Source: a virus. Taken from it: DNA of 40,340 nt. The stretch lies in UHGV virus genome UHGV-0384112; one strand, 5' to 3'. The position numbers were made by a program, and so were the translations under genes. The notes beneath the pieces are model-generated. The model did not search any database. It had not been told where the DNA came from and saw nothing but the letters and a program-made list of their open reading frames with translations. Positions 3,338 to 25,675 of this stretch are shown here, piece after piece. Numbering within the stretch: the stretch's first letter is position 1; every line of letters starts with the position of its first letter.

Positions 3338-3986
3338 AGGCGCAGTACCGCAAATTTTTATTCAGGGATTTATTGGTTCTAGTTGGTTCTTTGAAGGGAA
3401 TACTGACAAGGGAATCAAAAATATTTTGGATAGTCTAGGTGATCAAGAAGAAATTGAAGTAGTAATTAATTCAAACGGTGGAGACGTATTTCAAGGGATT
3501 GCTATTGGGAACTTACTTAAGTCAAATAAAGCAAAAGTTAACGTTGTGATTAACGGCTTAGCCGCTAGTGCTGCTTCAATTATCGCAATGGCTGGCGATA
3601 CTATAAAAATCTACAACAATGCACAATTGATGATTCACCGCGCTTCCACATACGGAGAAGGAAATGTCGATGACTTCCGTACGATTGCTGACCAACTGGA
3701 ATCAATTGATAAATCGGTAAAGGCTTCATATAAAACACGATTCAATGGCACAGATGAAGCATTGCAAGAACTTCTTGAAAAAGAATCGTTTATGGATGCA
3801 GAAACAGCTTTGAGTTATGGATTGGTCGATGAAATTATCGATGCAGAAAATAGCTCAGGTACTGAAGCTAAAAAAGAACAAAGCGTTGAAGAAATTTTGA
3901 ATGACGTTAAAGAAAAAAGAGCAGAAAAAATTGCTGCATTTACAGCAGCATTAAATAAAACATTTGGACAAGGAGATGTAAAATAA
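3300..3986 (+). CDS. prohead serine protease, ClpP-like
   Basis: ClpP-like motifs VINSNGGDVFQGIAIGN, GLAASAASIIAMAGD (Ser) and MIHRA (His). Strong RBS GAAAGGAGGTGA upstream of ATG 3300. The ORF track start at 3291 is probably too early. Confidence 0.8.
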   Translation: MTTMKTFLAVKNEGAVPQIFIQGFIGSSWFFEGNTDKGIKNILDSLGDQEEIEVVINSNGGDVFQGIAIGNLLKSNKAKVNVVINGLAASAASIIAMAGDTIKIYNNAQLMIHRASTYGEGNVDDFRTIADQLESIDKSVKASYKTRFNGTDEALQELLEKESFMDAETALSYGLVDEIIDAENSSGTEAKKEQSVEEILNDVKEKRAEKIAAFTAALNKTFGQGDVK

Positions 3987-5146
3987 TGACAGTTAAAAAT
4001 TTAAAAGGTGTAACAGCTGCAAGCGACCAATTGATGAAAGCTTTTAAAGATGGTAACGAAGAATCTTTTAGCGCAGCTATGGTAAGCTTATCTAAGGAAA
4101 TTCAGGATAAAATTTTAGAAGAAGCAACAGCAAAAAATCAAGATCAATTAGTATTAATGAACCGTGGTCAGCGTGTATTAACTACACAAGAAACAAAATT
4201 CTATAACGAAGTAGTGAAAAACGAAGGTTTTGCAGGGGTCGAAGAATTAGTGCCAGCTACTGTATTTGAACGTGTATTTGAAGATTTAGAACAATCTCAT
4301 CCACTATTGCAAAAAATTACTTTTGTTAACACAACTGGTGTAACAGAATGGATTGTGTCACGTGGAGTCAATCCAGCATGGTGGGGTAAACTTTGCGAAG
4401 CTGTTAAAAAAGTTTTAGATAATGGCTTTGATGTAATTAACATGAAGCAGTTCAAGCTATCAGGTTATATTCCTGTATGTAAGGCAATGCTTGATTTAGG
4501 TCCAGTATGGTTAGATCGTTATGTCCGTACTGTTTTAGTAGAATCATTGAGAATTGCATTAGAACAAGCAATTGTTGATGGTACTGGTAAAGATATGCCA
4601 GTCGGAATGATGCGTGACATGAGCAAACAAACTAGCGGAGAATATGCTGAAAAAAAAGCAGAACCTATTACAGCTTTAGATGCTGTAACTATGGGCGGTT
4701 TGATGGCGCGACTATCAAAATTCAATATCGAAGGTGTGAATGATCCGATTTATCGTAATGTGAATCCTTCTGATGTGGTCCTAATTGTGAATCCAACTGA
4801 TTACTGGTCTAAAGTATTCCCAGCTAAGACTGTACTAACTGCTAATGGAGAATACGTACAAGTATTGCCAGTACCAGTTTCAGATTTGCAGTCAACGGCT
4901 GTGCCAGAAGGAAAAGCAGTTATTGGGGTAGCCTCAGATTACTTCATGGGTGTAGGATCTACACTAAAAATTGAAGCTTCAGATGAATACCATTTTGTTG
5001 AAGACGAACGCATTTATCTAGCTAAACAATATGCAAACGGTCAACCTAAACGTAACGATAGTTTCATTGTATTAGATATTAGCGCTTTGGGAACTACTAC
5101 TACAACTACAAAACCAACAACCACAACAACTACAACACAAGCGTAG
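3986..5146 (+). CDS. major capsid protein, HK97 fold, with N-terminal delta/scaffold-like coiled coil and a C-terminal poly-Thr tail (TTTTTTKPTTTTTTTQA)
   Basis: 386 aa following the protease, with translational coupling (ATAATG). Typical size. The C-terminal run of (ACW)n codons at 5093-5146 is seen directly. Confidence 0.8.
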   Translation: MTVKNLKGVTAASDQLMKAFKDGNEESFSAAMVSLSKEIQDKILEEATAKNQDQLVLMNRGQRVLTTQETKFYNEVVKNEGFAGVEELVPATVFERVFEDLEQSHPLLQKITFVNTTGVTEWIVSRGVNPAWWGKLCEAVKKVLDNGFDVINMKQFKLSGYIPVCKAMLDLGPVWLDRYVRTVLVESLRIALEQAIVDGTGKDMPVGMMRDMSKQTSGEYAEKKAEPITALDAVTMGGLMARLSKFNIEGVNDPIYRNVNPSDVVLIVNPTDYWSKVFPAKTVLTANGEYVQVLPVPVSDLQSTAVPEGKAVIGVASDYFMGVGSTLKIEASDEYHFVEDERIYLAKQYANGQPKRNDSFIVLDISALGTTTTTTKPTTTTTTTQA

Positions 5147-5155
5147 GTGATCAGA

Positions 5156-6031
5156 ATGAAGTATATTCTTTGTCAGCCGGCAATCAATCGGTTTAAATGG
5201 GAGCTTGAAGTTTGTTTAACTAATCTGAAGAAACTAGGAATCAAAGATATCGTATTGCTTTTCAGCAGACACGATGATCAGATTCCTATTTTTTTTGAGA
5301 AGGAATATGGTGTTGAAGTTCATGTGTACGATGATCTGCGGGACGACAAAGAGTATATTCCTTCGATTAAACCATATTTATGGTGGAAATATTTAGAAGA
5401 AGATCATTCGCGTGAGGACGACCGATATTTCTATATCGATTCGGATGTCATTTTCAATAAAAGAATTAATTTGCGCAAATTGCCTTCTAAAGATGATGTT
5501 TGGTATTGTAGCGACTGCTGTAGTTATCTAAGTCTTGATTATATTAGAAGCTGTGAAAACGGAGAAAATATTCTAAAAGATATGGCAAACATTGTAAATG
5601 TTACAGTAGAATCTTTGGAAACTATAAACACTAATTCAGGAGGCGCACAGTGGGTTATTAACCGTCCTAAAGCGAATTATTGGAAAAAGGTTTATCTGGA
5701 TTCTAATCGGCTATATCGCTACCTTAGAGGGCAAAAAACAAATATACAAATCTGGACAGCCGAGATGTGGGCACAGCTTTGGAACATGATGTATTTCAAT
5801 ATTGGTCCTAAAGTTCACGAGGAATTAGACTTTTGTTTTGCTACTGATCCAATAGAAAAAGTTAAAGAAGTAAAAATCTTACACAATGCTGGAGTAACAA
5901 CAAACGATGAAGATTTATTTTTCAAAGGGAGATACGTGACTTCTACGCCTTTTGATGAAGATTTATCATTTGTAAACAAGAAAAAATGCTCTTACGCATA
6001 TGTTAAAGCAATTAAGGCGGTGGTTAGATGA
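5156..6031 (+). CDS. putative GT-A fold glycosyltransferase (GT8-like motifs) embedded in the head operon
   Basis: A hydrophobic strand followed by DxD (YFYIDSDVIF). About 60 aa later comes NSGGAQWVINR, which resembles the GT8 NsGv motif, then KILHNAG. RBS AGGTGA precedes ATG 5156. The stop overlaps the next gene start (ATGA), so it is co-translated with the structural genes. Confidence 0.45.
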   Translation: MKYILCQPAINRFKWELEVCLTNLKKLGIKDIVLLFSRHDDQIPIFFEKEYGVEVHVYDDLRDDKEYIPSIKPYLWWKYLEEDHSREDDRYFYIDSDVIFNKRINLRKLPSKDDVWYCSDCCSYLSLDYIRSCENGENILKDMANIVNVTVESLETINTNSGGAQWVINRPKANYWKKVYLDSNRLYRYLRGQKTNIQIWTAEMWAQLWNMMYFNIGPKVHEELDFCFATDPIEKVKEVKILHNAGVTTNDEDLFFKGRYVTSTPFDEDLSFVNKKKCSYAYVKAIKAVVR

Positions 6032-6339
6032 CGCCTGAACAAGTGACTGAAGAATTGCTAATAGCTGTGAAGGATAATATTTACGTTACCTGGAACGAAG
6101 AAGATGAGTCAATTAAAAAGATGATAGCTAAAAATGCTGTTTATCTTCAAAGTAAAGTGAGTACAACACTTTCTTTTTCTCCTGAAAGCTTAGAATACGG
6201 ATTGCTAATCGAAAGATGTAGATACGACTGGAATCGTGCTTTAGATGAGTTTGAACAAAATTTCGCTAGTGAGTTATTAGGTTTCATTCAACATTATGCG
6301 CTACAAGAATATATTGCAGGTGATGTGAATGGCGAATAA
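6028..6339 (+). CDS. head-tail connector protein (gp6-like)
   Basis: 103 aa, first gene after capsid/GT. Synteny with HK97-like head-tail joining modules. Confidence 0.5.
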   Translation: MTPEQVTEELLIAVKDNIYVTWNEEDESIKKMIAKNAVYLQSKVSTTLSFSPESLEYGLLIERCRYDWNRALDEFEQNFASELLGFIQHYALQEYIAGDVNGE

Positions 6340-6682
6340 TCGTAGACTCGAAGAAACATTCAACGATGGTTGGTTAAAGATTTTGACGCAAACTACCAAA
6401 AGAAATGAACTAGGAAAAAAGATTGGTGTAGAAGATACAGAAATCACTTCTTTAAAATTTAGAAATCTTTCCATGAGAGATAGTGATATAACAGCTATGG
6501 ATGCGATGGGATCGAAATTAACTAAGAAAGTAAAGACTCCATTTCATCCAATCGCCAAGAAATTTAATAAAGATCAATATTTTATCGTAATCGATAGTAT
6601 GCGTTACAACGTTATCTATGCCGATTACGATAATTTTTATATCTATTTTTATCTTGAAAGTGTGGGTGAATATGGTGATTGA
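6329..6682 (+). CDS. head-tail adaptor / head closure protein
   Basis: 117 aa, overlapping start and stop with neighbours. Call by synteny only. Confidence 0.45.
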   Translation: MANNRRLEETFNDGWLKILTQTTKRNELGKKIGVEDTEITSLKFRNLSMRDSDITAMDAMGSKLTKKVKTPFHPIAKKFNKDQYFIVIDSMRYNVIYADYDNFYIYFYLESVGEYGD

Positions 6683-7073
6683 TAATTCTAAAGAAAAAGA
6701 ACGTTTAAATAAGCAAATTTCTGCTATCAAAACTTCCTTAGAAGAGCATTTTGGCCTCAAACTCTTTCAAGACTCCGTAGGCGAGGATGAGCTACCTGAT
6801 GATTTTAATTACTTCATTCTCGAAACAGGAGAAATAGAAATGATCACTGAGCCAAAATATAGCGTGGGTCAAAATCTATATCTAACTTTCTATTCAGAAA
6901 ATAGAGAAGATTTAACAGGAGACTCACTAGATATTATTTCATTGATTCAAAATCGTTCGATTCGTTTTCAGAGAATGGATCCCAATCATTTAAAACTAGA
7001 GAACCAAGATCGCTATATCGATCAATTGGTATTTACGTTTAGACGATTATTGAAGAGTGATTGTCATGGCTAA
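6672..7073 (+). CDS. tail-component protein (HK97 gp10-like)
   Basis: In-frame ATG at 6672 overlaps the stop of the previous gene. Call by synteny. Confidence 0.4.
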   Translation: MVIDNSKEKERLNKQISAIKTSLEEHFGLKLFQDSVGEDELPDDFNYFILETGEIEMITEPKYSVGQNLYLTFYSENREDLTGDSLDIISLIQNRSIRFQRMDPNHLKLENQDRYIDQLVFTFRRLLKSDCHG

Positions 7074-7470
7074 AAATAGTTGGGAGCTAAAAATAAATGG
7101 ACATGATGAACTTCTTGTGCGGATGGAACGCTATTCAAGCGAGAGCGAACGACTGATTAACGAAGCATTGAAATCAAAAGGTTCGGCTATTGCAGTGGAT
7201 AGGATTACAGAAAAAATTCCTGTTTCTGAAGCAGATTTAAGAAGAGGGCACCAACACGCAAAAAATAGTCGTCCACTTAAGACTCAATACATTAATTTGG
7301 GTTTCATCATTAGACCTACAAGAAAATTTGAGTATTTAAAATATCCTGATTTGGGGATAGGTACTTCTAAAAGAAATCAGCCGGACGAATTTATGAGAAG
7401 AGGATTAGGTCTTGCACTTGATCCAATTACAGAACTTCTGATTCGTCAATTCGATAAATTAAATAAATAG
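7066..7470 (+). CDS. tail completion/terminator protein
   Basis: ATG 7066 overlaps the previous stop (ATGGCTAA). Positioned immediately before the major tail protein. Confidence 0.4.
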   Translation: MAKNSWELKINGHDELLVRMERYSSESERLINEALKSKGSAIAVDRITEKIPVSEADLRRGHQHAKNSRPLKTQYINLGFIIRPTRKFEYLKYPDLGIGTSKRNQPDEFMRRGLGLALDPITELLIRQFDKLNK

Positions 7471-7481
7471 GGGGAACAACA

Positions 7482-8090
7482 ATGGCTAAAACAAAAACTG
7501 TAGTAACAACGTTCGATAACGTAAGTATCAAACGAATTGCTTTTAATTTTAAGAACGCAGGAAATGCAATCGCAACGAATTGTAATGGACAATTAGATGG
7601 CGAAACAGAAATGCAAACGGTGGTTAAAAAATGTGGAGCGACAGAAGTAAAATCAAAATCTAAACCAATCAATATGACGGTAACAATTACTGCACATGTA
7701 CCGATGGAAGTTTATCGACGTTTCAATGGGTTGAAACAAGATGGACGTATTAAACCAGGCATTTACTCTTACGGTCCTGATTCCGTAGGCGAAGATTTCT
7801 CACTTGCTGCAGAGATCGTGGATGACTTCGAAGAAAATAGAAAGTTAGTTGGTATGTTAGCATGCACTTCGAATACAGGATTAACATTCTCTATTGAAAA
7901 TGGTGCGGATGAAGTAGCTGCGTTAGAACTAGAAACAAAAGTTATGCAAGATGAATTTGGTAAATTTTATCATGAAGCAATTGTTGCAGAACTTGAAGAA
8001 GACTTAACAGATCAATGGATGACGAATCTATCTGCTGATGTGATTAAAAAAACTTCAGTTGTGACAACTACGGCCACTCAATCACAGTAA
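7482..8090 (+). CDS. major tail (tube) protein with a Thr-rich C-terminus (SVVTTTATQSQ)
   Basis: 202 aa with RBS GGGGGAAC. It directly precedes the chaperone-frameshift-TMP block. The Thr-rich tail is seen directly. Confidence 0.65.
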   Translation: MAKTKTVVTTFDNVSIKRIAFNFKNAGNAIATNCNGQLDGETEMQTVVKKCGATEVKSKSKPINMTVTITAHVPMEVYRRFNGLKQDGRIKPGIYSYGPDSVGEDFSLAAEIVDDFEENRKLVGMLACTSNTGLTFSIENGADEVAALELETKVMQDEFGKFYHEAIVAELEEDLTDQWMTNLSADVIKKTSVVTTTATQSQ

Positions 8091-8673: not shown

Positions 8674-11600
8674 ATGGCTAAAAAGAGAACAGAAGCAGAA
8701 GTAACTTTCATAGCTAACGATGACGGATTGAAATCTACGTTAAAAGAAATCAGTGCTGAATTAACTAAAAATAGAGCAGAATTAAAACTAGAACAAGCTC
8801 AATTACAACAGACTGGTTCTGAATCAGACAAGTTAGGAAGTAAATTATCTTCTTTAGAAAAGCAGTATGAATTACAAAGTCAAAAAGTTGAAGTAACTAG
8901 CCAACGTTTAGCCAATGCGAAAAAATATTATGGAGAAAATTCCACCGAAGTTCAGAAACTTGAAAGAGAACTGATTAATCAACAAACAGCGCAACAACGT
9001 TTGTCAAACGAAATTGATAAAACGAGTAATGCACTAGCTCAAGCAAAAGGCGAAATACAGACGTACGAGTCTACAATGCAACAGTTGGATAGCGAACAAA
9101 AAAATGTTCAAGCTAGTGCTTCTCTGATTGAATCCGAATACAAAAAATGGCAAGCAACTGCTGGTCAATCAGCTTCTGAAGCCGAGAAATTAGCGAAAGC
9201 CCAAGAATATGTTTCTCAACAATCTGAAAATGCGGAGAAAACGATAGATATCCTAAGACGACAGTTAGAAGCTACACAGTCTGAATTTGGCGCTACATCC
9301 ACAGAAGCAATGCAGATGGAAGCGAAGCTTAATGATGCTGAACGTGAATTTGAAGAGTTAGGACAAGCTGCTAAAAATGTAGATACAACTAACTTGGACG
9401 ATATCGGAAGCAAAATAGATATGAATAATTTAATGGAAGCTTCTGACGTTTTAAGCGACATTGGCGATAAGCTTACAGAATTAGGGAAACAAGCAGTGGA
9501 CTCTGCTAACAGTGTAGGTAGTTCCCAGAGTAAGATACAAGCTAATTTTGGTTTGTCTAAACAAGAGGCTGAAGAATTAACGAATGTAGCCAGAGACATT
9601 TATTATAAAGGTTTTGGAGAATCGTTAGATCAGTCCACAGATGCATTGATTTTGGTAAAGCGTAATTTAGGAGATTTAAATAATCAAGATTTACAAAATA
9701 TCACGGAACAAGCTATGGTCCTAGAAAACACCATGGGCGCTGATATGGATGAAACGTTACGTGGTGTAAATGGCTTAATGGTCAATTTCGGCTTGAGTGC
9801 TCAAGATGCAATGGATTTAATGGTTTCGGGTACTCAAAACGGTTTAGATAAAACGCACGAATTAGGCGACAATATGGCAGAATATAGCCAATTATGGAGT
9901 CAAATGGGATATTCAGCTGATGAAACGTTCGGAATGCTTCAAAATGGTTTAGATGCGGGTGCTTATAACCTTGATAAAGTCAATGACTTAGTTAAGGAAA
10001 TGGGAATATCGTTAACAGATGGTCGATTTGAGCAAAACATGGATATGTTTAGTGAAAGTACTAGAAAAGCTTTTGAAGAGTGGAAAAATGGCGGAGGAAC
10101 ACAAAAAGACGTTATTAATTCCATGATTCAAGATTTTAGCAATATGGATGGTCAATACGACCAATTAAATAAAGCTTCGACAATTTGGTCTGCGCTTGGC
10201 GAAGATAATGCGATGAAAGTTGTCCAATCTTTAACTGATGTTAACCATACATTTGATGATGTTAGTGGATCTGCACAAAAAATGAATGAAGATTCTACTA
10301 CTCCGTTGCAAGAGTTGAACGGGAAAATAGCTGAATTAAAGGATTCATTAGCTCCTATAGGCAACACAATCATAGATGCACTCGAACCAGTAATTGATTT
10401 TCTAGGAAAGATGGCTGATGCGTTTAATAATCTTCCACAACCAGTACAGGATTTCATTGTTGCTATAGGTGGTCTTACAGCAGCATTTGGCATACTGTTA
10501 CCGGCAATACTAGCCGTGTCATATTTATTTGGTCCGATGATGCTTATAATTGGAGGAATTATAGCTGTTATAGCAGGCGTTATTGTGGCAATTAAGAACT
10601 GGGGTGCAATTACTGACTGGTTTAGTGGTTTATGGAAAAAATTTACTGATTGGTTGGGTGATACTTGGGAAAGTATAAAAGACGGAGCCTCATCAGTTTG
10701 GGATGGGGTTAAAGAAACCTGGTCTGGATTTGTAGATTGGGTTCAAGATATTTGGCAAGGAGTTTCTGATTGGTTTGGAGAGCTATGGAGCGGATTAGTT
10801 GAAGGAGCTTCCAACATCTGGCAAGGAGTCCAAGAAACTTGGCAAACATTCGTTGATTGGGTTTCAAATATTTGGAACGGAGTCAAAGAAGTATGGTCGA
10901 TTATTTGGGCAGACATTGTAGGAATTGTTCAAATACCATGGACATTAATAACGTCATTGATTCAAGCTGGTATTAATATTATCGTGGGTATTTTTGATGT
11001 AGCTGGACAGTTATTGGGCGCAGCTTGGCAAGCTGTTTGGACACCTATTTCTGATTTCCTTAAAAATACTTGGGATACTATGACACAATGGATAAGTATC
11101 GCTTGGAATGGGATTGTAACTACATTCCATACTATATTTGATCCAGTAGTGGCATGGTGGAATGGTATATGGACAGCTATTAGTACTACGGCTTCAAATA
11201 TTTGGAATTCAATTAGTGCAACAGCTTCTAGTATTTGGAACAGTATCAAGAATACAATCACTAGCTTGGTACAAGCAGCTGCTACAGTAATTCAAAATAT
11301 TTGGTCAACTGTATCTAGTTGGTTAGGTGGAATTTGGAATTCAATCAGCTCTACAGCATCAAATATCTGGAATAGTGTGACTAGTAGTATAAGCAATGCT
11401 ATAAACGCAGCTAAAAGTGCCATTCAAAGTGTTTGGAATAGTATATCTTCGTGGATTAGCGGAATTTGGAACGGTATCAAAAATACTGCTTTGAATCTTT
11501 GGAATGGAATTACAAGCACTATTAGCTCTAAAGTAAACGATGGAAAAAATGCAATTTCAAGCGGTTGGTCCAATCTAACAGGTATTGTTTCCGACATATT

Positions 11601-12105
11601 CAATAATGTTAAAAGTACAATTGCTAACATATGGGAAGGCATCAAAAAGACTGTTAGCGCTCCAATTGATTGGATTAGAGACAAAATCAGTGGCATTTTT
11701 GATAATTTGAATATTTCTATACCACATATTCCGTTACCGGAATTTATCATGGAAGGCAGCTTTAACCCGCTAAAAGGTCAAATCCCCCATTTGCGTGTAA
11801 AATGGCATGCTAAAGGAGGTATCTTTACTAAACCAACTTTACTAGGTGGAATGAACGGTGTCGGTGAAGCAGGACCTGAAGCAGTTTTACCTTTGAAAAG
11901 ATCTGTTTTGCAAGAAATTGGTGATCGTATCTTGAGTAGCACATCAGTTTCATCTAGGGCACAAACGATTCAACCTGTGAATAACTACGAATTCAATTTC
12001 ACAATTGATGGTAACGCAGATGAGGTTACTATGAAGCAAACAACTCAACAAATCATTGATAGCATTACAAAAATTCAAAATGATAATGCTTCGGCATGGC
12101 GTTAA
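8674..12105 (+). CDS. tail tape measure protein
   Basis: 1143 aa with an N-terminal coiled coil, a central hydrophobic/TM segment and a long Trp-periodic repeat region. It follows the G/GT chaperone. Confidence 0.9.
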   Translation: MAKKRTEAEVTFIANDDGLKSTLKEISAELTKNRAELKLEQAQLQQTGSESDKLGSKLSSLEKQYELQSQKVEVTSQRLANAKKYYGENSTEVQKLERELINQQTAQQRLSNEIDKTSNALAQAKGEIQTYESTMQQLDSEQKNVQASASLIESEYKKWQATAGQSASEAEKLAKAQEYVSQQSENAEKTIDILRRQLEATQSEFGATSTEAMQMEAKLNDAEREFEELGQAAKNVDTTNLDDIGSKIDMNNLMEASDVLSDIGDKLTELGKQAVDSANSVGSSQSKIQANFGLSKQEAEELTNVARDIYYKGFGESLDQSTDALILVKRNLGDLNNQDLQNITEQAMVLENTMGADMDETLRGVNGLMVNFGLSAQDAMDLMVSGTQNGLDKTHELGDNMAEYSQLWSQMGYSADETFGMLQNGLDAGAYNLDKVNDLVKEMGISLTDGRFEQNMDMFSESTRKAFEEWKNGGGTQKDVINSMIQDFSNMDGQYDQLNKASTIWSALGEDNAMKVVQSLTDVNHTFDDVSGSAQKMNEDSTTPLQELNGKIAELKDSLAPIGNTIIDALEPVIDFLGKMADAFNNLPQPVQDFIVAIGGLTAAFGILLPAILAVSYLFGPMMLIIGGIIAVIAGVIVAIKNWGAITDWFSGLWKKFTDWLGDTWESIKDGASSVWDGVKETWSGFVDWVQDIWQGVSDWFGELWSGLVEGASNIWQGVQETWQTFVDWVSNIWNGVKEVWSIIWADIVGIVQIPWTLITSLIQAGINIIVGIFDVAGQLLGAAWQAVWTPISDFLKNTWDTMTQWISIAWNGIVTTFHTIFDPVVAWWNGIWTAISTTASNIWNSISATASSIWNSIKNTITSLVQAAATVIQNIWSTVSSWLGGIWNSISSTASNIWNSVTSSISNAINAAKSAIQSVWNSISSWISGIWNGIKNTALNLWNGITSTISSKVNDGKNAISSGWSNLTGIVSDIFNNVKSTIANIWEGIKKTVSAPIDWIRDKISGIFDNLNISIPHIPLPEFIMEGSFNPLKGQIPHLRVKWHAKGGIFTKPTLLGGMNGVGEAGPEAVLPLKRSVLQEIGDRILSSTSVSSRAQTIQPVNNYEFNFTIDGNADEVTMKQTTQQIIDSITKIQNDNASAWR
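10610..11700 (+). repeat. about 33-bp (11-aa) periodic repeats inside the tape measure (…W..I..G.S..W.GVK.TW…)
   Basis: Dozens of 11-residue units with conserved W/F/I positions (DWFSGLW, DWLGDTW, SVWDGVKETW, DWVQDIW, IWNSISS…). A typical TMP length-ruler repeat. Confidence 0.7.
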
Positions 12106-20605: not shown

Positions 20606-20896
20606 ATGTCAAGACGTCAACGAAGAACCTATTCAAAAGAATTCAAACAACAAATCGTCGATCTCTATCTCGCTGGTAAGCCTCGCGCAGAAATTATTCG
20701 AGAGTATGAGCTTACGCCTTCTTCTTTCGATAAATGGATGAAGCAAGCACAATCAACGGGCTCATTCAAAGAAAGAGACAACTTAACACCAGAACAAGCA
20801 GAATTGATCGCACTAAGAAAGAAAAATAAGCAACTCGAAATGGAGAATGATATTTTAAAGCAAGCGGCGCTGATATTCGGACGAAAAGACAAGTAA
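20606..20896 (+). CDS. IS3-family transposase OrfA (HTH)
   Basis: 96 aa containing the IS3 OrfA leucine-zipper/HTH pattern (KEFKQQIVDLY…LEMENDILKQA). Confidence 0.8.
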   Translation: MSRRQRRTYSKEFKQQIVDLYLAGKPRAEIIREYELTPSSFDKWMKQAQSTGSFKERDNLTPEQAELIALRKKNKQLEMENDILKQAALIFGRKDK

Positions 20897-21768
20897 TTGA
20901 TGCCAACAAGCATAAATATTCCATATCAGCGATGTGCAAAATTCTAAATATTTCTCGTCAAACCTACTATTATCAAGCGAAACCGATCGAAAATGAGTCC
21001 GACTTAGAAGAGATCGTTCAGGAAGAGTTTATTCGAAACCGAAAGGCTTACGGTACCCGAAAATTGAAGAAGTGTTTAGCAAAGCGTGGGCTTCAACTCA
21101 GTCGGCGCCGAATCGGTCGAATCATGAAACGCCGCGGATTGACATCTACCTATACGATCGCTCATTTTAAAGGGCAACGAACAGCTTGTAATGAAGCGAA
21201 AACAGCGAATGTATTAGATCGGACCTTTACACAAGAACAGCCATTGGAAGCCATCGTTACGGATCTTACTTATGTTCGCGTGGGGAAAAAGTGGCATTAT
21301 ATCTGCTTAATACTTGATTTGTTTAATCGAGAAATTATTGGTTATTCCTGTGGTGAGAAGAAAGATGCCTCATTGGTAAAAGAAGCCTTTGGACGGATAC
21401 CGTATTCTTTAACAGACGTCAAGCTTTTTCATACAGACCGGGGAAAGGAATTTGATAACCAAACCATTCATGAGATTCTGAATGGTTTTGGAATTACTCG
21501 TTCATTGAGTAGGAAGGGTTGTCCGTATGATAATGCCGTTGTGGAATCAACCTATAAATCTGTCAAAGTAGAATTCGTGCATCAATACCAATTTGAGACA
21601 CTGGCACAGCTACGTCTAGAATTGTTTGATTATGTGCATTGGTGGAACTATCTACGCTTACATGGCACGTTGGCGTATGAAACACCGATCCAAATTCGAC
21701 AACAGAGATTGGCGAAGCGAATCCTTGATAATGAGCGCGGATCTGATACCTCTGGAGAGGCAGCGTAA
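20851..21768 (+). CDS. IS3-family transposase OrfB (DDE integrase domain); probably expressed as an OrfAB fusion via -1 frameshift near 20884-20888 (A_AAA_AG)
   Basis: The -1 frame is open from 20851, and the first ATG is at 20932. DDE-domain hallmarks such as HTDRGKEF, and the C-terminal pattern LHGTLAYETP typical of IS3 transposases. Confidence 0.75.
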   Translation, partial: YFKASGADIRTKRQVIDANKHKYSISAMCKILNISRQTYYYQAKPIENESDLEEIVQEEFIRNRKAYGTRKLKKCLAKRGLQLSRRRIGRIMKRRGLTSTYTIAHFKGQRTACNEAKTANVLDRTFTQEQPLEAIVTDLTYVRVGKKWHYICLILDLFNREIIGYSCGEKKDASLVKEAFGRIPYSLTDVKLFHTDRGKEFDNQTIHEILNGFGITRSLSRKGCPYDNAVVESTYKSVKVEFVHQYQFETLAQLRLELFDYVHWWNYLRLHGTLAYETPIQIRQQRLAKRILDNERGSDTSGEAA

Positions 21769-24311: not shown

Positions 24312-24508
24312 TTGTGCCAAATTATGTGCCAAAAAAATTCGAATTCAACAAAATGTAAACAAATAGAAAACCTTCTATATTAAGATTTCCTGCAATAACA
24401 AACACAACAGAAGACGTGTAATAGTTAGTCAGGAACGTATAAATAACCCCTGTATCCTTTGCGGTACAGGGGTTTGTTTTGTATTTGTGCCAAAAATGTG
24501 CCAAACTA
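24312..24508. repeat. four copies of TGTGCCAAA in two tandem pairs (24313-24334 and 24487-24508) flanking a hairpin; candidate arm-type integrase-binding sites / attP region
   Basis: Seen directly. Immediately 3' of the integrase gene, where attP usually lies. Confidence 0.4.
24449..24482 (+). terminator. rho-independent terminator (CCCCTGTA-tcctttgcgg-TACAGGGG + TTTGTTTT)
   Basis: Seen directly. It lies between the two TGTGCCAAA repeat pairs. Confidence 0.55.
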
Positions 24509-25675
24509 GTTATCATTTTTATATAAACTATCGAACACAGTATTGATTTTTTCTTTATCCTGATCTTCAAGCTCTCGAACAATATGAAGATAAGTAGACA
24601 TTGTAGTTTCTAAACTGCTATGTCCTAAACGTTTCGATACGCTAAGTATATTTACTCCTTGATAAAGTAAAATAGATGCATGTGTATGCCTTAGTCCATG
24701 CAAAGTAAATTGCTTTTCAATCCCTAATTCTTTTAATTTTTTGCGCAAATATTTGCTGACGGCGTTTGATGAAACTAATCCATTTTTTAAGTTGAAAAAA
24801 ACAAAATTATGAGGGTTTTTGATTTCAAAATTCTCGAATAATTCTTTTTGATTGATTTTAAACTTTTTTAAGAGATCAATCGTATGTTTATCAATGGAAA
24901 TTTTCCTATTTGAAGTTTCGTTTTTTGTTTTTCCCCATTCATTTAATTTATAATTCCATGTTTTATTAATAGTGATGATTTGATCTTCGAAATCGATATC
25001 TTCCCATGTTAATCCTAGAAGTTCAGCAAATCGCATTCCAGTGGCACCAGCAACTAACACGAGCATAGGAGAAGAGTACTGCGCAGAAAGGTTTTCTTCT
25101 ACGAGTTTCATTAAAGATTTAAATTGATCATAATCTAAATATTTATCTTCTTTTGGCTTCAATGAATCTTTTCCTTTGATTACTGCTTTTCTAGTTGGAT
25201 CAAACGGAATTAATCCTTCTTCTACGGCATCTTTCAACGACGCTCTAATATGGTTATTAAACTTAATAACGGTAGATTTTACATGGTCTTTAGCATACTT
25301 ATTTAAAAAGCGTTGATATCCCACTCTATCTAAATCAGAAATCAATACCGCTGGCATATATTTCTTTATGTTCATTAACGTATCTTCGTATTTTCTATAA
25401 GTGATAGGAGATACTGTTCCTTCTTTATAAAGTTGCATCCAATCCTCAAAGTAATCTGATAATAATAGATTTTTGCGATCCCCTTTAAGGCCTTTGTTCA
25501 AGTTATATTCTAATTCGTTGGCGGCATCTTTTGCTTCTCCTTTTGTCTTAAATCCTGATTTTCTTATCTTCGTGTATTTTCCGTCATCTTTTTTGTATGA
25601 AATTTCGTATTGCCAACTATTTCCACGTTTGACTAATCTTGCCATAATTGAATCAGCTCTCTTTCTCTGATACAA
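24506..25675 (-). CDS. int: tyrosine site-specific integrase
   Basis: 389 aa. The C-terminal catalytic region contains R…HGLRHTHASILL…LGHSSLETTMSTYLH (R-H-R-Y). Confidence 0.9.
   Translation of the reverse strand: MYQRKRADSIMARLVKRGNSWQYEISYKKDDGKYTKIRKSGFKTKGEAKDAANELEYNLNKGLKGDRKNLLLSDYFEDWMQLYKEGTVSPITYRKYEDTLMNIKKYMPAVLISDLDRVGYQRFLNKYAKDHVKSTVIKFNNHIRASLKDAVEEGLIPFDPTRKAVIKGKDSLKPKEDKYLDYDQFKSLMKLVEENLSAQYSSPMLVLVAGATGMRFAELLGLTWEDIDFEDQIITINKTWNYKLNEWGKTKNETSNRKISIDKHTIDLLKKFKINQKELFENFEIKNPHNFVFFNLKNGLVSSNAVSKYLRKKLKELGIEKQFTLHGLRHTHASILLYQGVNILSVSKRLGHSSLETTMSTYLHIVRELEDQDKEKINTVFDSLYKNDN

Follow-up and report, generated by a model that had tools for sequence, protein, structure and literature searches.

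A GT-A-fold glycosyltransferase gene coupled to a poly-Thr-tagged capsid gene points to probable virion O-glycosylation in an Enterococcus faecium siphophage

The virus genome UHGV-0384112, a stretch of 40,340 nucleotides referred to here as the window, belongs to a temperate siphophage of Enterococcus faecium in which a gene for a glycosyltransferase-like protein (5156..6031, + strand) lies between the genes for the major capsid protein and the first connector protein. Positions 3986..8090 are 99.8% identical to Enterococcus phage 4995_1 (OP745419), and the left 20 kb constitute a standard HK97-type late operon, running from the small and large terminase genes through those for the portal (PF04860) and a ClpP-type prohead protease (PF00574) to an HK97-type major capsid gene (3986..5146, + strand; 386 aa; PF05065, E=1e-16; phrog_10, E=3e-64; TIGR01554), which carries the label 'major capsid protein' in OP745419 and encodes the predicted substrate of the enzyme. 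The extra gene follows directly, as the initial annotation of this locus had proposed, and is succeeded by connector, adaptor and neck genes (phrog_749, 5635, 5910 and 5509) and then by the tail genes. Downstream, the inserted module is bounded by the first gene of the connector block (6028..6339, + strand; 103 aa; phrog_749, 'unknown function'), and in relatives that lack the glycosyltransferase the orthologue of this connector gene comes after a variable slot. Further along, the major tail (tube) protein gene (7482..8090, + strand; 202 aa; phrog_117, E=2e-18), whose product is a possible second substrate, precedes the chaperone and tape-measure genes.

Sequence features on both sides of the inserted gene tie its translation to that of its neighbors. 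The TAG stop codon of the capsid gene (5144-5146) overlaps a perfect 8-nt Shine-Dalgarno core, AGGTGATC (5145..5152, + strand), located 3 nt upstream of the ATG at 5156, and the TGA of the inserted gene (6029-6031) overlaps the ATG at 6028 of the next gene in an ATGA stop/start arrangement (6028..6031, + strand) typical of translational coupling. Both overlaps had been recognized at the outset; the product length of 292 aa reported with them is the codon count including the stop, and the protein has 291 residues. It contains no signal peptide or membrane segment, and the prokaryotic genome annotation pipeline (PGAP) calls the same open reading frame (ORF) 'hypothetical protein' in OP745419. 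We detected no compositional sign of recent import in the gene, its GC content (0.34-0.36) being similar to that of its neighbors.

The capsid product terminates in GTTTTTTKPTTTTTTTQA (in longer form, ...ISALGTTTTTTKPTTTTTTTQA), and the poly-Thr tag at its C-terminus, TTTTTTKPTTTTTTTQA (5093..5143, + strand), which comes after ...LDISALG, provides 13 Thr per subunit that constitute predicted O-glycosylation sites. Runs of four or more Thr occur in the window at this capsid tail only, and their length differs among near-identical phages, as expected of a repeat. A Thr-rich end had been described for the tube protein as well, but here it is only weakly so: the tube product ends in ...KKTSVVTTTATQSQ, and its C-terminal tail, TSVVTTTATQSQ (8052..8087, + strand), represents a Thr-poor, less common allele of the tag. 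Of the tube proteins in 39 close relatives, 34 end in SSTTTTTTT(QA/RA/KKA/KKV) and the remaining five carry the window-like allele. Relative to the common SSTTTTTTTQA allele, TSVVTTTATQSQ presents many substitutions within approximately 36 nt, set between near-identical flanks (as seen against loci L009, L031 and L037).

To characterize the product of ORF 5156..6031, we built an AlphaFold2 model on 45 homologues, which reached a predicted local distance difference test score (pLDDT) of 96.5 and a predicted template-modeling score (pTM) of 0.92. The model presents the single Rossmann-like alpha/beta/alpha domain with a central mixed beta-sheet that defines the GT-A fold. Foldseek searches against the PDB returned 236 matches at E≤1e-3, the best 50 of which are glycosyltransferases throughout, headed by the retaining GT-A enzymes WbbM, UGGT, alpha-1,3-GalT, blood-group GTA/GTB and glycogenin (E from 7e-8). 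Likewise, among the best 50 matches to viral models (BFVD), the top entries beyond members of the family itself are named GT8 or glycosyltransferase. The structural comparison hence recovered the GT-A fold that had been anticipated from the sequence.

The three motifs on which that anticipation was founded, YFYIDSDVIF (D95, D97), NSGGAQWVINR (160-170) and KILHNAG (H243), are all present and spaced as described. Strand E90-93 of the model precedes YFYIDSDV, and the DxD motif D95-S96-D97 (5438..5446, + strand), situated after the beta-strand YFYI, is predicted to bind metal and nucleotide-sugar. The NSGGAQW motif (N160-W166; 5633..5653, + strand) stands at the start of strand E162-169, and the HNAG motif (5882..5893, + strand) supplies, in H243, a predicted third metal ligand. 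D95 and D97 are invariant in the 45 aligned homologues. In a set of 72 representatives of the same family, 31-47% identical to the window protein, D97, H243, G246 and K257, which lies further downstream of HNAG, are invariant, as are G163, W200, M204, Y67 and Y129, and D95 is at least 90% conserved. As judged from these alignments, the conserved DxD/His pattern is that of a working metal and nucleotide-sugar site.

The family assignment is less direct. The closest structural neighbors of the protein and the order of its motifs (DxD ... N-x-G ... H-x-x-G ... K) are those of GT8, but the window protein has no Pfam match at E≤1, Pfam likewise yielded nothing of note for the 45 homologues, none of which matches the GT8 profile PF01501 at E≤10, and NCBIfam returned no match for the window protein. 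Searches of PDB sequences with phmmer and hmmsearch, using two family profiles, yielded nothing meaningful and no GT8 chain. In PHROGs, the protein falls in phrog_4417 (E=2e-156), a group of 'unknown function'. The earlier designation of a GT8-like retaining GT-A enzyme consequently stands at the level of fold and motif, and formal GT8 membership by sequence does not. ORF 5156..6031 most likely encodes, on the evidence of the model, a soluble, cytoplasmic, metal-dependent GT-A glycosyltransferase of an unannotated family whose nearest structural relatives are the retaining GT8 enzymes.

This family is large and broadly distributed. A full hidden Markov model search over 1.84 billion representatives identified 866 clusters at 50% identity (E≤1e-3), and 59 of the best 150 family clusters are at least 450 aa long, with extra domains that include GT2, Glyco_transf_7C, GT25-like, methyltransferase, radical-SAM plus SPASM, and PqqD. 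Such fusions, to glycosyltransferases, methyltransferases, radical-SAM enzymes and PqqD, a peptide-binding recognition element of ribosomally synthesized and post-translationally modified peptides (RiPPs), fit the building of glycans on peptide segments. Fusions to PqqD or radical-SAM/SPASM were observed in family members P0160, P0182 and P0216; the C-terminal region of the last looks LanC-cyclase-like by eye and has no Pfam match. The annotators of phage 9183 recorded a PqqD-family homologue for its ORF095 (L094 11233-12102). The PqqD and radical-SAM/SPASM fusions hint that part of the family may operate in peptide natural-product pathways. Among phages, tblastn with the window protein detected homologues in 77 records, and the family extends over siphophages and Herelleviridae of Enterococcus, Staphylococcus, Lactococcus, Lactobacillus, Listeria, Clostridium and Bacillaceae. 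The Enterococcus faecalis model phages VPE25 and VFW, together with nattely and vipetofem, encode a homologue of about 49% identity that is annotated as 'prophage pi2 protein 34' or hypothetical.

We then examined the association between this gene and the poly-Thr tags. A scan of 2.9 million IMG/VR contigs located at least 523 loci with a homologue, and the best 80 yielded 60 distinct enzyme sequences. Poly-Thr C-terminal tails are present in all 60 of these distinct loci. Where a locus spans both genes, the capsid-sized (304-387 aa) and tube-sized (196-218 aa) proteins are both tagged, and in short loci only the protein adjoining the glycosyltransferase is visible. The gene immediately follows that for the capsid or that for the tube (or another tagged protein).

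The same pairing extends to isolated phages of diverse types with unrelated head modules. Both the capsid (...TTTTTKPTTTTTKPTTTTTTTQG) and the tube (...TTTTTSTTTTTTSSTTTTTTTQASSK) are tagged in phiFL1A, as are the capsid, the tube and a 125-aa poly-Thr protein in iLp84, and the tube in bIL285. Among larger genomes, 9183 (86 kb) has a tagged tube, with short Thr runs, and a tagged 161-aa protein, SA2 (89 kb) a tagged tube and an 87-aa protein, and the Herelleviridae member Bacchae (141 kb) three small tagged proteins flanking the gene. In phiCTP1 the tags occur on a portal-sized protein, gp11 and gp18, and in 1706 on the capsid and the major structural protein, both of which end in TTTTTTTTTHHD. 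Poly-Thr is also observed near the C-terminus of the SA2 'assembly protease' (L095 14874-15983), of protease/scaffold type, and of the portal-sized gp4 of phiCTP1 (L097 2356-3945). Its presence on proteins of these two types implies that the tag is not limited to capsid and tube.

Conversely, the tags disappear where the gene is missing. In phages of two lineages that lack the glycosyltransferase and have capsids 81–99% identical to those of gene carriers, tails are absent in 11 of 11 cases. In the first lineage, a genome-contig search with the capsid protein returned nine loci. Prophages of E. dispar, E. nangangensis, Ca. E. murrayae and an Enterococcaceae isolate (four loci) encode capsids 81-84% identical to that of the window and contain neither gene nor tails, their capsids ending in ...NLAPASK or similar and their tubes in ...ADVIKASKQ. 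Two Clostridia relatives likewise have neither. Both tails are seen in three gene-carrying species genomes, except for one short contig with the capsid tail only. The DNA similarity of the window to orthologues that lack the gene, those of the E. dispar prophage and others, breaks off at about position 5090, three bases before the Thr stretch. In the second lineage, the L. casei-group phages CL1, CL2, iLp1308, R24.2 and JNU_P10 have capsids 98-99% identical to that of iLp84 and are devoid of glycosyltransferase and tails: their capsids end in ...KVLIPKP, whereas that of iLp84 ends in ...KVLVPTTTTTTTSK, and their tubes in ...GGSGTGA, as opposed to ...GETTTTTTTSK in iLp84. Comparative genomics had been put forward as a check on co-variation, and the outcome is consistent, with tags accompanying the gene at every locus examined and lost without it in two independent lineages.

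The capsid-connector slot of the E. dispar prophage holds other small ORFs, and the corresponding slots of Enterococcus prophages without the glycosyltransferase contain ORFs of 74-77 aa or several genes (L088 11200-11424, L091 11191-11424 and L089 11203-12644), which identifies this position as a hot spot for accessory head genes. A permissive slot of this kind could have received the gene by accident, the enzyme glycosylating phage DNA or a small molecule, and phage DNA glucosyltransferases do exist. The 20 largest other ORFs of the window, however, include no genes for hydroxymethyl-pyrimidine synthesis or other base hypermodification, nor a second glycosyltransferase, a sugar-nucleotide gene or a methyltransferase, and known phage DNA glycosyltransferases are not among the top structural matches. 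A DNA or small-molecule substrate would also leave unexplained both the co-variation with the tags and the alternative site directly after the tail-tube gene, and we regard this possibility as extremely improbable.

Adjacency and co-variation, taken by themselves, link the protein to the tails and not to catalysis. The protein might then be an inactive chaperone or assembly factor of GT-A fold that binds the poly-Thr tails, promoting subunit solubility or timing assembly, with no transfer of sugar. The DxD, the His, the glycine of NSGG and the Lys are nonetheless invariant or nearly so in the 72 representatives, as in a working site, and the fusions to other glycosyltransferases, methyltransferases and radical-SAM enzymes fit an enzymatic pathway. 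A non-catalytic role appears very unlikely on these grounds.

To approach the association from the side of the tag, we performed a blind scan of IMG/VR for nine consecutive ACN codons in any virus type, which retrieved 120 loci. Members of the glycosyltransferase family are encoded in seven of these, where approximately 0.02 would be expected from 523 matches in 2.9 million contigs (Poisson P ~1e-15, or ~1e-9 were the family tenfold commoner). In all seven, the poly-Thr ORF is directly followed or overlapped by the glycosyltransferase gene. At L173, L193, L127, L183, L145, L152 and L194, proteins of 600-2000 aa whose repeated modules are joined by several poly-Thr linkers, with LP/AP...Y/C motifs after each linker, have a glycosyltransferase homologue directly after them; from their sequences, these proteins look like glycosylated fibre or adhesin-type proteins. 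Separately, four uncultured phages (L101, L154, L201 and L119) encode from two to four proteins, 139-382 aa in length and mostly of 170-194 aa, that end in 8-17 Thr, the run sometimes extending to the very last residue.

These observations bear on whether the enzyme could instead modify a host envelope polymer, such as teichoic acid or a cell-wall polysaccharide, and serve lysogenic conversion or superinfection exclusion in the manner of TarP and Gtr, the tails being unrelated flexible linkers. The window phage is temperate, with an integrase at 24506..25675, receptor-altering prophage GT-A enzymes are well known, and some GT8 enzymes, LgtC among them, have glycolipid substrates, all of which would suit such a role. 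Yet the gene resides in the late structural operon, coupled to the capsid and connector genes and outside moron or lysogeny regions, and its product has no membrane segment. It is also carried by phages of ~86-142 kb (9183, SA2 and Bacchae) and by 1706, with no integrase annotated in the stretches examined. Envelope modification, moreover, offers no reason for the loss of tails with loss of the gene, or for the placement after a poly-Thr ORF in the seven blind cases, and we deem it highly improbable.

An explanation closer to direct tag glycosylation is that the enzyme is a secondary transferase that extends a host-initiated O-glycan or needs a host partner, the poly-Thr tags still being the modified sites. 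Of the four rival explanations considered here, this alone accounts for the adjacency to tagged genes and for the way in which gene and tags are gained and lost together. The module, however, is found across Enterococcus, Lactococcus, Lactobacillus, Staphylococcus and Clostridium, which have no known general Thr O-glycosylation system in common; it provides the sole glycosyltransferase in small phages; and its strict adjacency to a tagged gene fits a self-sufficient pair. Dependence on a host initiator therefore seems unlikely, and we consider it probable that the phage enzyme itself O-glycosylates the virion on its poly-Thr tags.

The tags show signs of moving between genes as discrete units. 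The residues that follow the Thr run usually match between capsid and tube within a phage (QA/QA, KKA/KKA, KKV/KKV, SHA/SHA, QG/QG, SK/SK and HHD/HHD), the suffixes agreeing in 18 of 37 distinct combinations, where 10,000 permutations gave a mean of 4.7 and a maximum of 13. In several phages, both tails are identical in DNA over ~33 nt, synonymous positions included, as illustrated by the common tail DNA of L031 and L037, CAACAACCACAACAACTACAACGAAAAAAG(C/T)GTA. Capsid and tube tags were also seen to change jointly between phages (L031, L037, L003 and L098). At the level of sequence, the matching tails indicate gene conversion between non-adjacent structural genes, or else joint selection by the cognate enzyme, and gene conversion between tails would explain how a second protein gains the tag.

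From the coupled gene, the fold, the conserved DxD/His pattern, the co-occurrence and adjacency of gene and tags, the loss of tags without the gene and the identical tag DNA, we infer a catalytically active enzyme and the following route. The enzyme would be synthesized at a late stage of infection, its translation coupled to that of the major capsid protein, and the absence of a signal peptide or membrane segment implies cytoplasmic action. There it would move sugar from a host nucleotide-sugar donor onto Thr hydroxyls of the C-terminal poly-Thr tags, probably in a retained (alpha) linkage like that formed by its structural neighbors. In this phage, the capsid tail TTTTTTKPTTTTTTTQA would be the main target, and the degenerate tube tail TSVVTTTATQSQ probably a weaker one. 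The C-terminal extensions of HK97-fold capsid and tail-tube proteins usually face outward, and outward tails with 13 Thr per capsid subunit would cover head and tail with a dense, mucin-like layer of O-glycans. The enzyme and its tag would together behave as a portable module, the gene lying directly after a tagged gene and short exchanges of DNA copying tags between structural genes. Candidate benefits comprise a shield against antibodies, for which mycobacteriophages provide the precedent, and, as equally possible ones, resistance to proteases, colloidal stability, and adhesion to mucus or cell walls.

Several points weigh against virion glycosylation by this enzyme. No sequence profile (Pfam, NCBIfam or PDB) sees the protein as a glycosyltransferase, and its assignment as one rests on a predicted structure with a template-modeling score (TM) of ~0.5 and 10-13% identity to known enzymes. 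The proposed equivalence of D95, D97 and H243 to the GT8 Mn ligands derives from motif order and conservation only. With one glycosyltransferase and no sugar-activation genes in the window, any glycan would have to be simple or dependent on host donors, and the open-access literature searched reports no glycan, mass shift or activity for any phage that carries the gene. The tube-protein tail of the window is Thr-poor, such that the tube of this phage may be little modified or not at all. In addition, the tagged phages L101, L154, L201 and L119 have no member of the glycosyltransferase family in the 5-15 kb around the tagged genes, which means that tags of this kind are not confined to loci with this enzyme and may in some cases be served by a different family of enzymes. 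Lastly, the co-variation counts come from related phages and are not independent, the association being carried by two clean gain/loss contrasts and by its wide spread across phage types. Together with the blind scan, these contrasts and this spread make chance or mere linkage very unlikely.

More broadly, and with less assurance than for virion glycosylation as such, we lean towards the view that these genes represent a widespread, unannotated family of tag-directed protein O-glycosyltransferases, associated with a portable C-terminal poly-Thr 'glyco-tag' that is copied between structural genes by short gene conversion. In this manner capsid, tube, decoration protein, portal and fibre linkers could each gain a mucin-like coat from one small enzyme encoded by an adjoining gene. 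If this is correct, virion self-glycosylation in tailed phages would widen from mycobacteriophages to phages of Gram-positive pathogens and dairy bacteria, the 'hypothetical' family of phrog_4417 ('unknown function') would gain a function, and model and candidate-therapy phages such as VPE25, VFW, phiFL1, 9183 and SA2 would be glycosylated particles. Glycan coats alter antibody recognition and clearance, which is relevant to phage therapy against Enterococcus and Staphylococcus, and a coat may influence mucus or cell-wall adhesion and particle stability in the gut and in dairy settings. One enzyme and a tag of ~15 residues would also make a compact tool for glycan display on phages or other proteins. 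Natural matched pairs are available in iLp84 and CL1 (capsids ~98.5% identical) and in the E. faecium and E. dispar prophages, and several gene carriers are cultured laboratory phages, of which VPE25 and VFW are convenient for work on virion glycosylation.

Two further features of the window lie apart from the glycosyltransferase locus. An IS3-family element (20606-21768), consisting of a 96-aa ORF and a transposase with HTH_21 and rve domains (20932..21768), lies between the lysis genes and the integrase and recurs in OP745419. Many degenerate repeats of the type W-x(2,3)-[IV]-x-x-x-[AW] (for instance, …IWNGV… and …SWLGGIWNSI…) make up the C-terminal half of the tape-measure protein (8674-12105).

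The closest known system is that of mycobacteriophages such as Che8, Corndog and Myrna. As summarized in three sources (PMC12363180, PMC11600133 and PMC12691614), mycobacteriophage glycosyltransferases modify the major capsid and tail-tube subunits, lowering antibody recognition (Freeman et al. 2023, Cell Host Microbe 31:1216), and this study is the sole natural example cited in a November 2025 review. The initial annotation had taken such a system to be undescribed in HK97-like phages of low-GC Firmicutes, and we found no report of this family, of poly-Thr tails or of glycosylated virions in Firmicutes phages in the open-access literature searched, an absence that is not proof. In both systems the glycosyltransferase is phage-encoded, here within the late operon, and the two most abundant surface proteins, capsid and tube, are the substrates, predicted here from acceptor segments that are clear on the capsid of the window but degenerate on its tube. 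Homology between the enzymes was not detected, with no Mycobacterium phage among the 77 tblastn records or the best 50 BFVD fold matches. Mycobacteriophages of cluster O have three tandem glycosyltransferases and an O-methyltransferase, whereas the module described here has a single glycosyltransferase gene, the sugar is proposed to be accepted by a short and portable Thr homopolymer whose coding sequence adjoins that gene, and the hosts are Firmicutes.

Beyond phages, the GT8 enzymes LgtC, glycogenin and GlyE share the motif order of the window protein (beta-strand-DxD, N-x-G-G/A loop, H-x-x-G and Lys), and glycogenin and GlyE use protein substrates, GlyE acting on the Ser-rich repeat adhesins of Gram-positive bacteria; the window protein differs from them in its low identity (10-13%) and longer His-Lys spacing. 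Fusions of some family members to PqqD or radical-SAM/SPASM recall RiPP glycocin-type systems and suggest that the family may recognize short peptide segments. The glycocin transferases SunS and ThuS belong to GT2 and form S- or O-linkages on small secreted peptides, whereas the window protein lacks an additional domain of this sort and is predicted to act on structural proteins. Ser-rich-repeat adhesins, the Thr/Pro linkers of cellulases and the mucins of eukaryotes likewise display surface-exposed, low-complexity stretches of hydroxy amino acids that carry dense O-glycans, as is predicted for the tags; here, by contrast, the stretch comprises 13-20 residues at the extreme C-terminus of icosahedral-capsid and tail-tube subunits, and the enzyme is cytoplasmic and phage-encoded. 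Virion O-glycosylation itself being already known, what these comparisons would add is its attainment in Firmicutes phages through a different enzyme family and portable poly-Thr tags.

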